From the NCBI RefSeq assembly GCF_057098645.1, contig NZ_CM169472.1: a DNA stretch of 64,000 bases, one strand, 5' to 3'. Positions 1,343 to 48,881 of the stretch are shown here, one piece after another. Under the pieces are notes generated by a model. The model worked only from the letters and a program-made list of their open reading frames with translations. It ran no database searches and was not told the origin of the DNA. A program made the position numbers and the translations under genes. Numbering within the stretch: position 1 is the stretch's first letter; each line of letters opens with the position of its first letter.

Positions 1343-1414
1343 GTGCGGTTTTACCGCATACCAATAACGCTTCACTCGAGGCGTTTTTCGTTATGTATAA
1401 ATAAGGAGCACACC

Positions 1415-1579
1415 ATGCAATATGCCATTGCAGGGTGGCCTGTTGCTGGCTGCCCTTCCGAATCTTTACTTGAACGAATCACCCGTAAATTACGTGACGG
1501 ATGGAAACGACTTATCGACATACTTAATCAGCCAGGAGTCCCCAAAAATGGATCAAATACTTATGGCTATCCAGACTAA
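1415..1579 (+). CDS. cIII: CIII (FtsH inhibitor, stabilises CII)
   Basis: 54-aa translation [54 protein letters not shown], recognised as lambda CIII. Internal ATG at 1415 with AAGGAG RBS upstream. Confidence 0.8.
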   Translation: MQYAIAGWPVAGCPSESLLERITRKLRDGWKRLIDILNQPGVPKNGSNTYGYPD

Positions 1580-12465: not shown

Positions 12466-12538
12466 GTCCGGCGTTTCCTGCCGGATGCGGCGCGAGCGCC
12501 TTATCCGGCCTACAAAGGGCGCAAACGTCGCGCCCTTA
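12466..12538. repeat. REP (repetitive extragenic palindrome) element
   Basis: gcctgccggatgcggcgcgagcgccttatccggcctacaa followed by a gggcgc...gcgccc palindrome in the osmF-bglX intergenic region. Confidence 0.7.
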
Positions 12539-12546
12539 CTAAAGCA

Positions 12547-17725: not shown

Positions 17726-17898
17726 GATGAGCATTCAGATAGTGGTTCACGCGCACGGGTTGCGCACCGCCGGAGTAAGGATTTACTGAGGCTAGCGACG
17801 CCATCATAACGAGCAAAAAGTGCGATCGTCAAAGGAGAATCGTGAGGAAATGCTGCATTGCTGACATTTACGCCAGCAATGCAACGTCAAAGAACTTT

Positions 17899-19234: not shown

Positions 19235-19363
19235 AACCATTGCCCTGGATAAGGCGTTCGCGCCGCATCCGACATCCGGAGTACCATGCCTGATACGACG
19301 CTTGTGCGTCTTTTCATGCCGACCAAAATATTACCCAATGAAATATCCACGCACCTCACTGCG

Positions 19364-24699: not shown

Positions 24700-26695
<1,996 letters not shown>

Positions 26696-26888: not shown

Positions 26889-28127
26889 ATGCCGCAACAA
26901 AATTATCTGGATGAACTCACTCCGGCTTTTACGTCTTTACTGGCGATTAAAGAAGCCTCTCGCTGTTTATTATGTCACGACGCTCCCTGTAGTCAGGCTT
27001 GCCCGGCACAGACCGATCCGGGGAAATTTATTCGCTCAATCTACTTTCGTAATTTTAAAGGCGCTGCCGAGACAATTCGCGAAAATAATGCCCTCGGTGC
27101 CGTTTGTGCCAGAGTGTGCCCGACGGAGAAATTATGCCAAAGCGGTTGTACCCGTGCCGGTGTTGATGCTCCCATTGATATCGGCCGCTTACAGCGTTTT
27201 GTTACTGATTTTGAACAACAAACCGGAATGGAAATTTATCAGCCCGGTACTAAAACGCTCGGCAAAGTCGCGATTATTGGCGCAGGTCCTGCCGGATTGC
27301 AGGCCAGTGTGACACTGACAAACCAGGGTTATGACGTCACGATTTATGAGAAAGAAGCGCACCCCGGTGGCTGGTTGCGTAACGGTATTCCGCAATTCCG
27401 GTTACCGCAATCAGTGCTGGATGCAGAGATCGCCCGTATTGAAAAAATGGGCGTGACCATTAAGTGCAACAACGAAGTCGGTAACACACTCACCCTTGAG
27501 CAGCTGAAAGCAGAAAACCGCGCGGTACTGGTCACCGTGGGGTTATCAAGCGGTTCCGGGCTACCGCTGTTTGAGCATAGTGACGTTGAGATTGCCGTCG
27601 ACTTCTTGCAACGTGCACGACAGGCGCAAGGCGATATCAGCATTCCACAAAGCGCATTAATTATCGGCGGCGGTGATGTCGCGATGGACGTAGCCAGCAC
27701 GCTGAAAGTTCTCGGCTGTCAGGCGGTAACTTGCGTAGCGCGTGAAGAGTTAGATGAGTTTCCGGCAAGCGAAAAAGAGTTTACCAGCGCCCGGGAGCTG
27801 GGCGTTTCGATCATCGATGGATTCACGCCAGTAGCCGTGGAAGGCAATAAAGTCACGTTTAAGCATGTACGGTTATCGGGCGAACTGACGATGGTGGCAG
27901 ATAAAATTATTCTCGCCGTCGGTCAGCATGCCAGACTGGATGCCTTTGCGAAGTTAGAGCCGCAGCGTAACACCATCAAAACACAAAATTATCAGACCCG
28001 CGATCCGCAAGTCTTTGCTGCTGGCGATATTGTTGAGGGTGACAAAACCGTGGTCTATGCCGTGAAAACCGGGAAAGAAGCCGCCGAGGCGATTCATCAC
28101 TATTTAGAGGGAGCTTGCTCATGTTAA
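26889..28127 (+). CDS. preT: NAD-dependent dihydropyrimidine dehydrogenase subunit PreT
   Basis: N-terminal Fe-S cysteine cluster and GAGPAGL dinucleotide-binding motif. Confidence 0.9.
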
Positions 28128-29356
28128 CGAAAGATCTTTCGATTACTTTTTGCGGCGTGAAGTTTCCCAACCCGTTCTGCCTCTCTTCTTCGCCGGTAGG
28201 CAACTGCTATGAGATGTGTGCCAAAGCCTACGACACAGGTTGGGGCGGCGTGGTGTTTAAAACGATCGGCTTTTTTATCGCCAACGAAGTCTCGCCGCGT
28301 TTTGATCATCTGGTGAAAGAAGATACCGGTTTTATCGGCTTCAAAAATATGGAGCAGATTGCTGAACATCCGTTGGAAGAGAATCTGGCCGCCCTGCGTC
28401 GGCTGAAGGAAGATTACCCGGACAAAGTATTGATCGCTTCGATCATGGGGGAAAATGAGCAGCAATGGGAGGAGCTGGCGCGCCTGGTGCAAGAAGCTGG
28501 CGCGGATATGATCGAGTGTAACTTCTCCTGTCCGCAAATGACTTCTCATGCGATGGGTAGCGATGTCGGGCAAAGCCCGGAGCTGGTAGAAAAATATTGT
28601 CGAGCAGTGAAACGGGGTTCCACGCTGCCAATGCTGGCGAAGATGACGCCGAATATCGGTGATATGTGCGAAGTGGCGCTGGCGGCGAAGCGCGGCGGCG
28701 CAGATGGCATTGCGGCGATTAACACCGTTAAATCCATCACCAATATCGATCTTAATCAGAAAATCGGTATGCCGATCGTTAACGGAAAATCGAGTATTTC
28801 CGGATATTCCGGTAAAGCGGTAAAACCGATCGCCCTGCGCTTCATTCAGCAAATGCGCACCCATCCAGAACTGCGCGATTTCCCAATCAGCGGTATCGGC
28901 GGCATTGAAACCTGGGAGGATGCGGCGGAGTTTTTATTGCTCGGCGCAGCAACGTTACAGGTCACCACCGGCATTATGCAGTACGGCTATCGCATCGTAG
29001 AAGATATGGCGAGCGGGTTGTCGCATTATCTCGCCGATCAGGGATTTGATTCGTTGCAGGAGATGGTAGGTCTGGCGAATAACAATATTGTCCCGGCGGA
29101 AGATTTAGACCGCAGTTATATTGTCTATCCCCGTATCAATCTTGATAAATGTGTTGGCTGTGGACGCTGTTATATTTCCTGTTACGACGGCGGTCACCAG
29201 GCGATGGAATGGAGCGAGAAAACCCGCACACCGCATTGTAATACCGAGAAATGTGTGGGTTGTCTGCTTTGTGGTCACGTCTGCCCGGTGGGTTGTATTG
29301 AGCTCGGGGAAGTGAAGTTTAAGAAAGGCGAGAAAGAACACCCGGTAACGTTGTAA
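28121..29356 (+). CDS. preA: NAD-dependent dihydropyrimidine dehydrogenase subunit PreA
   Basis: Dihydroorotate-dehydrogenase-like TIM barrel plus C-terminal 2x[4Fe-4S] ferredoxin motifs ([23 protein letters not shown]). Start overlaps the preT end. Confidence 0.9.
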
Positions 29357-29365
29357 AACCAGAGA

Positions 29366-29560
29366 CGCATCCGGCATTTGGTTCCTGTCGCCGGATGCGG
29401 CTTGAACGCCTTATCCGGCCTACAAAACCATACAAATCAGTATGTTGAGCTCATTGTAGGCCGGATAAAACGCGCCAGCGTTGCATCCGGCATTTGGCTC
29501 CTGTCGCCGGATGCGGCGTGAACGCCTTATCCGGCCTACAAAACCACACAGATCATGATG
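29366..29560. repeat. BIME: cluster of 3-4 REP elements in alternating orientation
   Basis: Repeated gccggatgcggc(g/t)tgaacgccttatccggcctacaaaacc units and an inverted copy, between the convergent preA and mglC. Confidence 0.8.
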
Positions 29561-29598
29561 TTATGTGCGTTTATGACCGAATGCGGACCACAATCATT

Positions 29599-30609
29599 TC
29601 ACTTCTTACGCGCGTACTTCAGTGAATCCAGCGCTACGGCGAAGATAATAATCGCCCCTTTGATGATGTACTGCCAGTATGGGTTTACGCCGATATACGT
29701 CAGGCCATAGTTGATGACGGTAAAAATAATTACCCCGGTCACCACGCCAATCACCGTCCCCACACCGCCGCTGAACGATACACCGCCTACCACGCACGCC
29801 GCGATAGCATCCAGTTCATACATAAAGCCGAGGTTGTTGGTGGCAGAGCCGATACGTCCGGCTTCTAACATCCCGCCAAAGGCATAGAACACGCCAGACA
29901 ACGCGTAGATCATCAGCAGGTTCAGGCCGACGTTGACACCAGATACTTTTGCCGCTTCCGGGTTACCGCCAATGGCAAAAATGTTCTTACCGAAGCGGGT
30001 TTTGTTCCACAACACCCAGACGAACGCCACCGCAATCAACGCGTAGAAGGTGATGTAAGAGAGACGGAAACTCCCCAGCGCGACAAAGCCCTGAGCAAAG
30101 GTAGAGAAGCCACTGTCAAAACCAGAAATTGGCGACGCCCCGACAAAGTCGTAATAGAGCGAGTTGATGCCATAGACGATGATCATCGTGCCGAGCGTGG
30201 TAATGAACGGCGTCACGTTGAGATAAGCGATAATCAGACCGTTGATCAAACCGATCACCGCACCAATGGCACAGACAATCAGAATAACCAGCGCAATCGG
30301 CATCGTCGCCATTTCCGGGAACACTTTGTTGGCGTTATCCATGGACTGCAATAACGTCGCCGCTACTACTGCCGCCAGCCCCACCTGGCGACCTGCAGAA
30401 AGGTCGGTCCCCTGGGTGACAATTAACCCTGCCACGCCGAGCGCGATAATAATACGCACCGATGACTGGGTGAGAATATTACTTAAGTTCAACAGACTTA
30501 AAAATGTTGGGTCCTGGAAAATAATAATCGCCAGCAAAACTAAAAGAACGACGTAAATACCGCCCTCTTTCAGGTAAGTAAGAAAACTTTTCTTATTTAA
30601 CGCACTCAT
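29599..30609 (-). CDS. mglC: Galactose/methyl-galactoside ABC transporter permease
   Basis: 336-aa polytopic permease, last gene of mglBAC. Confidence 0.9.
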   Translation of the reverse strand: MSALNKKSFLTYLKEGGIYVVLLVLLAIIIFQDPTFLSLLNLSNILTQSSVRIIIALGVAGLIVTQGTDLSAGRQVGLAAVVAATLLQSMDNANKVFPEMATMPIALVILIVCAIGAVIGLINGLIIAYLNVTPFITTLGTMIIVYGINSLYYDFVGASPISGFDSGFSTFAQGFVALGSFRLSYITFYALIAVAFVWVLWNKTRFGKNIFAIGGNPEAAKVSGVNVGLNLLMIYALSGVFYAFGGMLEAGRIGSATNNLGFMYELDAIAACVVGGVSFSGGVGTVIGVVTGVIIFTVINYGLTYIGVNPYWQYIIKGAIIIFAVALDSLKYARKK

Positions 30610-45648: not shown

Positions 45649-45686
45649 TTGCCGGATTCGACGCTTGACCGCATATTATCCGGCTC
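45649..45686. terminator. Hairpin between convergent yeiI and nupX
   Basis: Stem gccggat/atccggc with an acgctt-containing loop. Homologous to the hairpin 3' of psuT. Confidence 0.45.
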
Positions 45687-45698
45687 ATAAATCGCACA

Positions 45699-48837: not shown

Positions 48838-48881
48838 GATTGCCGGATGCAACGCTTAATAAGCGAGTACATCCGGCAATG
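48838..48881. terminator. Hairpin between convergent yeiL and psuT
   Basis: Perfect 10-bp stem ttgccggatg/catccggcaa. Homologous to the hairpin 3' of nupX. Confidence 0.45.

Follow-up and report, generated by a model that had tools for sequence, protein, structure and literature searches.

A BIME between preA and mglC of Escherichia coli That Probably Serves as a 3′-UTR Exonuclease Barrier, with Termination Left to Rho

Introduction

What, if anything, does an array of REP sequences do for its host when it fills the gap between two operons that run toward each other? REPs carry a conserved GTAG 5′ of the stem foot (PMC3333891). In BIME-2, Y and Z2 units are joined by a short S linker and occur in tandem copies; in BIME-1, the linker between Y and Z1 is the long L, to which IHF often binds (PMC3333891). 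The number of tandem BIMEs varies between strains, and cleavage and recombination at BIMEs by TnpA-REP have been proposed as a mechanism (PMC3333891). Here we put the question to the gap between preA and mglC in a 64,000-nucleotide stretch of DNA (contig NZ_CM169472.1, assembly GCF_057098645.1), which we call the window and which supplies all coordinates that are not given as K-12 positions. The locus bears on the proposal that between-strain REP variation tunes gene expression. It is also a natural test case within a single convergent pair: Citrobacter has a predicted bidirectional terminator of the classical kind, about half of E. coli strains have a two-unit BIME, and the other half have a collapsed hairpin.

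Results and Discussion

The Locus and Its Flanking Genes

The host of the window is E. coli. For positions 29250-29700 (451 bp), sequence comparison gives 100% identity to E. coli O145 RM9872 and 98.4% identity to genomes of the K-12 type; the genes on either side of the array are preA and mglC in the RefSeq annotation of both O145 RM9872 and K-12. The two genes converge on an intergenic gap of 242 bp (29357-29598), which has the same length in K-12. The array described below belongs to the 3′ untranslated regions of the plus-strand operon preTA and of the minus-strand operon mglBAC alike. K-12 positions were converted as window = MG1655 − 2207144, anchored on the preA stop codon and on an exact 61-nt match. 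The transcript, Rho and gyrase data used here are K-12 data; the K-12 array is 98.4% identical to that of the O145-like strain, and the 61 nt around the RNA 3′ end are identical. RefSeq annotation of K-12 carries no repeat feature in the gap. We rejected an independent gene at this position: a promoter scan of the gap gave no promoter, and two TTG-start open reading frames of 47 and 43 amino acids inside the array are composed of REP sequence and are unsupported.

Anatomy of the Array

The array (29359-29562) occupies 84% of the preA/mglC gap. Direct reading of the sequence, a repeat finder and consensus searches all give three full REPs and one truncated REP head in strictly alternating orientation (−, +, −, +). 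The linkers between them measure 13, 32 and 13 nt, and the arrangement is that of a BIME in the generic sense (Table 1). The three full units are imperfect palindromes of 34-37 nt, within the 30-40 nt of a REP, with an internal AA/GC-type mismatch in the stem, and each bears the GTAG tetranucleotide or its CTAC complement. The whole array lies between the stop codons of preA and mglC and is thus extragenic, and its sequence is repeated in the genome: the query matched at least 174,618 places in 5,425 genomes, with a median of at least 35 per genome. Within the 64-kb window, the 34-nt Y consensus has 4 matches with at most 3 mismatches against 0.00 expected, and folding of the gap against shuffled controls gave z = −7.3 and −7.95 on the two strands.

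At a larger scale, the array consists of a 116-bp unit in two copies, detected by the pairwise repeat finder as a direct repeat of 29359-29446 and 29475-29562 with 90% identity; Tandem Repeats Finder, for which the unit amounts to only ∼1.8 copies, gave no report for the array. The second copy of the unit ends in a diverged copy of the tail-to-tail linker (29540-29562, 23 nt, repeating the start of the long linker), and the long linker itself (29424-29455) is single-copy, found at 1 place per genome. A by-eye search of the remaining tail gave CCGAATGCGG at 29577-29586 as a possible, weakly called remnant of a REP head. The initial annotation had described three to four alternating REPs filling a convergent gap; its coordinates fall within 7 nt of the repeat boundaries, and the array is plainly a multi-unit one and not the single hairpin that would have spoken against it.

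Table 1. Features of the preA/mglC gap and adjoining sequence in the window
Feature	Position	Strand	Basis and remarks
Homologue of weak in vitro Rho-binding peak (with NusG), K-12 2236464-2236532, 3 nt from REP156	29320..29388	+ (preA sense)	bioRxiv 10.64898/2026.03.23.713779
preA stop codon (TAA)	29354..29356	+	ORF 28115..29356, translation ending ...EKEHPVTL*; RefSeq annotation of identical locus
Truncated Z-type REP, head half GCATCCGGCA (29367-29376) only; start of first 116-bp unit	29359..29376	−	Direct repeat D1; TGCCGGATGC on minus strand at 29367-29376
Head-to-head short linker (S-type), copy 1, TTTGGTTCCTGTC, 13 nt	29377..29389	.	Aligns to linker of Rfam naRNA4 model
Homologue of K-12 Term-seq 3′ end, 4 nt past foot of Y REP 1	29386	−	61-nt context matches window 29376-29436 exactly
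Y-type REP 1, CTAC end 29420-29423 (GTAG on minus strand)	29390..29423	+	1 mismatch to GCCGGATGCGGCGTGAACGCCTTATCCGGCCTAC; hairpin folds on both strands
Tail-to-tail long linker, 32 nt, BIME-1 L-like; candidate IHF-like site 29435-29447	29424..29455	.	∼74% to yaaX-yaaA L linker over 31 nt
Full Z-type REP, opposite orientation, GTAG 29456-29459 on plus strand	29456..29492	+	Repeat finder and consensus searches; aligns to second hairpin of naRNA4
Y-linker-Z unit homologous to 77-nt REP325 unit (naRNA4), mgl-sense strand	29459..29536	−	Rfam RF02564
Head-to-head short linker (S-type), copy 2, TTTGGCTCCTGTC, 13 nt	29493..29505	.	Sequence, repeat finder, naRNA4 alignment
Y-type REP 2, CTAC 29536-29539	29506..29539	+	0 mismatches to consensus
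59-nt tail of array, reaching mglC stop	29540..29598	.	Single-copy in genome; present in 2851/5426 genomes
mglC stop codon (TGA)	29599..29601	−	ORF 29599..30609, translation ...LKYARKK*; annotation

Identity and Class

The element is already known. The K-12 catalogue lists it as "REP156, Convergent, 2236684-2236535, preA, mglC" (supplementary table, bioRxiv 10.64898/2026.03.23.713779), which converts to 29391-29540 in the window, one base off the boundaries 29390-29539 of the three full REPs, and Y REP 1 is the first unit of REP156 (2236535-2236684). The BIME table of the Topo-seq study holds the array as well, as a 149-bp entry whose distances to the neighboring REPs are 3798 and 13111 bp, against 3798 and 13112 bp in the window. 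Rfam adds a match to RF02564 (naRNA4), a model that describes the Y-linker-Z2 unit of REP325 (PMC4550694); the match scores 85.8 bits against a gathering score of 59.5, covers model positions 1-77 in full and lies on the minus strand at 29459-29536. Weak Rfam matches to mir-2796, mir-80 and Cardiovirus CRE (E = 0.3-1) were set aside as palindrome noise.

The features seen are those of BIME-2, namely Y units, a short head-to-head linker, two tandem units and a gapless alignment of the hairpins to the Y-linker-Z2 of naRNA4. The Z unit of the array has the same length and loop as the Z1 of the K-12 BIME-1 and may be of either the Z2 or the Z1 type. BIME-2 elements are also described by a tail-to-tail flanking motif of type s, l or r (Bachellier et al.); the 32-nt linker of this array resembles L and could be the "l" motif. 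From its sequence, the element has a BIME-2 core and could be either a BIME-2 or an "atypical" chimeric BIME, a choice that turns on the Z2/Z1 and "l"/L distinctions. Membership in BIME-1 was considered and rejected, as the array is tandem, S linkers are present and the match to an IHF site is at chance level. TnpA-REP acts on a REP with a 5′ GTAG and a stem mismatch, together with an inverted REP or a linker with a CT cleavage site (PMC3333891), and all of these sequence requirements are present in the Y and Z units. Under either classification, the array is an ordinary E. coli BIME, catalogued before as REP156.

Variation among E. coli Strains

To see how the locus varies, we compared five probes with 5,426 complete E. 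coli genomes. The single-copy tail of the long form was found in 2,851 genomes, and at least 80% of the 451-bp query in 2,875; a collapsed 70-bp allele was found in 2,556. The inner long linker, which marks two units, occurs in its K-12/O145 version in 1,833 genomes and in a diverged version, carried by strains such as 536, in 1,035. The long form thus accounts for ∼52% and the collapsed 70-bp form for 47% of the genomes, and about half of all E. coli genomes carry two units. One-unit alleles are rare (at most ∼80 genomes), and a handful of genomes have 2-3 copies of the inner linker; these counts are bounds because one-unit and ≥3-unit alleles have no unique junction. The long form is present in K-12, BL21, O157:H7, Nissle and 536 and the short form in ATCC 8739 and E2865, with each form occurring in more than one lineage. 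REP copy number at this site therefore varies across strains through long, one-unit and collapsed alleles, a comparison that the initial annotation had put forward. Because the full array is missing in 47% of genomes, it is dispensable, and any benefit that it brings must be modest.

Two alleles carry traces of how they arose. In the one-unit allele that we examined (OkiPb01693), the SNPs of unit 1 are joined to the tail of unit 2: recombination within the REP that the units share has removed exactly 116 bp. The 70-bp short allele has the order head, linker, head, AGC, head, and keeps only the outer REP heads. Its mglC-side end matches the arrays of two divergent Escherichia genomes and not the long E. 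coli form, so that the short allele looks like the product of another ancestral array that lost the interior of a Y-linker-Z palindrome. A 12-bp hairpin remains in its predicted fold and could do the same job as the array.

Other Repeats and RNA Motifs in the Window

The window holds further repeats. The shorter REP copies that the initial annotation had recorded elsewhere are single REPs at 12480-12513 (2 mismatches) and 25592-25625 (3 mismatches, with a degenerate GTAG end). Beside the former lies a separate 8-bp G+C hairpin at 12516-12539 (AAGGGCGC-AAACGTC-GCGCCCTT), and the earlier span of 12466-12538 had merged the two. A degenerate REP-like palindrome pair, GGATAAGGCGTTCGCGCCGCATCCGACA ... 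GCCTGATACGACGCTTGTGCGTC, is present at 19243-19320, although the initial annotation had left it out, and corresponds by its spacing to an 83-bp entry of the K-12 BIME table. In the convergent gap between yeiI and nupX, a single degenerate REP lies at 45650-45690, where K-12-type genomes are 51 bp longer and the K-12 table has a 90-bp BIME-1; the length difference indicates a second REP copy-number polymorphism in the window. A short palindrome of two REP heads, TGCCGGATGCAACGCTTAATAAGCGAGTACATCCGGCA, lacks a GTAG end and lies at 48841-48878, and it resembles the collapsed preA/mglC short allele.

Two RNA motifs were also found with Rfam. A lambda phage cIII thermoregulator element at 1402-1460 (+) scores 88.5 bits (gathering score 50), which places the start of the window within a lambdoid prophage. 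A Peptidase-S11 RNA motif at 17730-17810 (−) scores 72.8 bits against 34.8 and is presumably the leader of a D-alanyl-D-alanine peptidase gene.

The Locus in Other Species

A pattern scan for the C-terminus of MglC, with one genome per species, returned at least 120 loci. Among the matches listed, the convergent preA-mglC arrangement is confined to Escherichia, Citrobacter and a single Pseudocitrobacter metagenome-assembled genome; Salmonella and E. fergusonii are absent among the matches listed. In five Citrobacter genomes, the gap is 56-60 bp long and contains one G+C stem of 10 bp with an A-run on one side and a T-run on the other; none of the five has a REP. This gap has the features of an intrinsic terminator on both strands, and we predict that it is a bidirectional intrinsic terminator.

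Within Escherichia, the REP mosaic differs in each lineage. The gap measures 197 bp in E. albertii, 152 bp in Escherichia genome E69 and 280 bp, with five REPs, in Escherichia genome SCPM-O-B-8794. In the last of these, the TAG that stops preA falls on the GTAG of the first REP, such that the coding sequence ends inside the repeat; this full-length REP is the homologue of the truncated REP at 29359-29376. We considered and rejected an origin of the preA stop codon from the GTAG of a REP. Citrobacter preA, with no REP beside it, already ends in TTG TAA, and the overlap in SCPM-O-B-8794 is therefore a juxtaposition. In the Pseudocitrobacter genome, the gap is 614 bp long and may hold an additional coding sequence; beyond it lies an inverted pair that is REP-like but belongs to another sequence family (GCCAGATGGCGC...CTTATCTGGCCTAC / GTAGGCCGGGTAAGCGC...).

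RNA 3′ End and Termination

Published K-12 data locate RNA ends on the mgl-sense strand, for RNA that may come from the mgl promoter or from an internal one. The dominant minus-strand (mgl-sense) RNA 3′ end in Term-seq is at MG1655 2236530 (Adams et al. 2021, Supplementary file 1), and a transcript 3′ end of the kind sought at the REP hairpins is thus found at the foot of Y REP 1 (29386 in the window). An RNA that ends there closes the Y REP 1 hairpin at its terminal base in the predicted fold. Further along the same strand, antisense to preA, a Rho termination region was mapped at 2236028 (Rho score 7.46, p = 3e-13), with upstream/downstream reads of 322/12 in untreated cells and 259/72 with bicyclomycin (Adams et al. 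2021, K-12). The same study records a further minus-strand 3′ end at 2236360. The Rho region lies ∼500 nt beyond the array, and since minus-strand RNA traverses the array to reach it, the array is not a tight transcriptional barrier. The suggestion in the initial annotation that such an array insulates neighboring operons finds little support at this locus in the K-12 Term-seq and bicyclomycin data. We note that the weak in vitro Rho-binding peak listed in Table 1 spans the preA stop codon.

Intrinsic termination finds no counterpart in the gap. A terminator scan gave one weak match, inside the Z REP, which equals the expectation from shuffled sequence, and no T-run follows any REP hairpin in the array. 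In a published model, PNPase or RNase II trims Rho-terminated transcripts to a stable hairpin without a U-tract, and REP hairpins protect against this trimming (PMC6061677); a 3′ end at the foot of a REP is what this trimming model expects. In addition, REP325 is reported to be a partly Rho-dependent terminator that stabilizes the mRNA upstream, and convergent gene pairs with REPs have higher expression (bioRxiv 2026).

Two other K-12 3′ ends on the minus strand fall outside the BIME (Adams et al. 2021). One is internal to mglC, at ∼30116 (K-12 2237260), and is marked as a putative internal sRNA, "mglC int". The other is a strong primary 3′ end after mglB, at ∼32170 (K-12 2239314), with a hairpin between mglB and mglA.

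A Proposed Role for the Array

Taken together, the explanation that we favor, and that we consider probable, is that a BIME of selfish origin now serves as an exonuclease barrier in the 3′ UTR, with termination left to Rho and with a copy number that has been changed by recombination. The REPs, once transcribed, would form stable hairpins, rich in G+C and lacking a U-tract. Polymerase arriving from mgl would pass the array and be stopped by Rho several hundred nucleotides on, in antisense preA, and 3′-to-5′ exonucleases would then trim the RNA to the foot of the last REP hairpin, which would become the stable 3′ end. The array would in this way hold back exonucleases and, with the help of Rho, attenuate transcription in part, and would be neither a self-sufficient terminator nor a site for gyrase or IHF. 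We infer the trimming, the stabilizing effect that would come with it and any effect on preA. At the level of DNA, the array would be a selfish-type repeat of the kind handled by TnpA-REP (RAYT), with recombination between its own repeats altering the number of copies.

Alternative Readings

The array may instead have no host function at all, being a neutral or selfish repeat in a tolerant gap, with an RNA 3′ end that is incidental to any stable hairpin. We regard this reading as doubtful, though it is a serious possibility. Presence and absence are near 50:50 across E. coli, the architecture changes from one Escherichia lineage to the next, the rest of the genome holds no conserved copies of the linkers, and proliferation of REPs and BIMEs by TnpA-REP is established in vitro (PMC3333891). 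On the other hand, every Escherichia genome that we examined is without the Citrobacter terminator yet keeps a REP-derived hairpin, even in the collapsed allele, and this persistence suggests that a hairpin is needed at the preA/mglC position. The dominance of the hairpin 3′ end in Term-seq likewise argues against a repeat that does nothing.

A more far-reaching scenario would give the alleles themselves a role. Here, insertion of a REP or BIME at the base of Escherichia would have displaced a bidirectional terminator and switched both operons to Rho with hairpin-protected ends, and the ∼52:47 split of the alleles over several phylogroups would represent a maintained regulatory polymorphism that tunes expression of the galactose-transporter genes mglBAC and/or the pyrimidine-reductase genes preTA together with antisense read-through into preA. 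We think this unlikely, and offer it as a speculation.

The initial annotation had named IHF as a possible ligand of such arrays. The long tail-to-tail linker could bind IHF as in BIME-1 (RIB/RIP) and bend the DNA between the REPs in an architectural role, an idea prompted by resemblance to known L linkers, which frequently have an IHF site (PMC3333891). Over 31 nt, the linker shares ∼74% identity with its L counterpart in the K-12 yaaX-yaaA BIME-1, and at the homologous position (29435-29447), it contains AATCAGTATGTTG, which is 1 mismatch from WATCAANNNNTTR and is the sole such match in the gap. However, matches of this quality to WATCAANNNNTTR are expected by chance 0.28 times per 242 bp, the array is tandem and has S linkers, unlike the single-copy BIME-1, and our literature search found no published ChIP data for the preA/mglC locus. 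An IHF site at this position strikes us as improbable.

A role in translation fares somewhat worse. In this reading, ribosomes terminating on preA would be stalled by the truncated REP that follows the stop codon, and less PreA would be made, in keeping with a rule by which translation falls when a REP lies within 15 nt of a stop codon (Liang, Rudd and Deutscher 2015, as cited in PMC12306157). The half-REP begins 10 nt past the preA stop codon, and a 13-nt inverted repeat (29363-29375 / 29390-29402) begins 6 nt past it. In the predicted folds, however, the segment next to the stop codon forms no REP-like hairpin, and the Y REP folds on itself, 34 nt past the stop; REP156 as annotated begins 35 nt past the preA stop. 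Stalling at this REP is accordingly a poor prospect.

The initial annotation had proposed that such arrays can bind gyrase. A preferred DNA gyrase binding and cleavage site between preA and mglC would absorb the positive supercoils of the converging units and provide topological insulation, and two points invite the idea: the BIME-2 class is enriched in gyrase cleavage sites, mainly at Y REPs (PMC6379681), and this array has two Y REPs with convergent operons on either side. Cleavage of BIME-2 is, however, confined to a subset of elements, and the interval of the array in Topo-seq (2240991-2241140, 149 bp, W3110 Mu SGS) has 0 cleavage sites in the four conditions used, namely ciprofloxacin, rifampicin with ciprofloxacin, microcin B17 and oxolinic acid. 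The K-12 data thus contradict gyrase action at this array, which we hold to be very unlikely.

Finally, we give almost no credence to release of the Y-linker-Z unit from the mgl 3′ UTR as a naRNA4-like small RNA that binds HU and condenses the nucleoid, for which there is the full-length Rfam match of 85.8 bits on the mgl-sense strand and a report that naRNA4 binds HU and bridges cruciforms (PMC4550694), but the naRNA/HU role is disputed in the literature, the Rfam model fits any Y-S-Z BIME unit, and no processed RNA from the preA/mglC locus is documented.

Significance

The locus matters little beyond annotation, since it is a catalogued element of a well-studied class and its behavior in K-12 fits that of REPs as 3′-UTR hairpins that define Rho-terminated ends. 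Its value lies in the alleles, with which any gain that a BIME brings over a plain hairpin or an intrinsic terminator could be measured directly.

Comparison with Known Systems

The closest relative is REP156 of K-12 MG1655, which has the identical locus, the 242-bp gap, the three full REPs and the truncated head; the two are one element in different strains, set apart by a few SNPs such as those in the second short linker and the mglC-adjacent tail. With REP325/naRNA4, the BIME-2 of yjdM/yjdN, the array shares the 77-78-nt unit of Y hairpin, short linker and Z hairpin as well as the tandem arrangement and the location in a 3′ UTR. In REP325, 6 nearly identical units give 12 hairpins and the flanking genes are in tandem, whereas the preA/mglC array counts 3.5 hairpins, its two units share 90% identity, a long L-like spacer separates them, and the genes on its flanks converge. 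From BIME-1 (RIB/RIP) elements such as that of K-12 yaaX-yaaA, it has in common a Y REP, a long tail-to-tail linker (∼74% over 31 nt, including the position of the IHF site) and a Z-type REP. BIME-1 is single-copy at each locus, has Z1 and is without an S linker, whereas at preA/mglC the module sits in a tandem array that includes S linkers, and its IHF core has a different mismatch.

The Citrobacter terminator occupies the same position between the same convergent genes and likewise presents a G+C-rich hairpin that serves both strands. Termination in Citrobacter would be factor-independent, whereas the Escherichia arrays are without U-tracts. The REP mRNA stabilizers of the malE-malF type differ in that at preA/mglC we infer the effect; they share with this array a stable hairpin free of a U-tract, at whose foot the RNA ends, with termination by Rho farther downstream.
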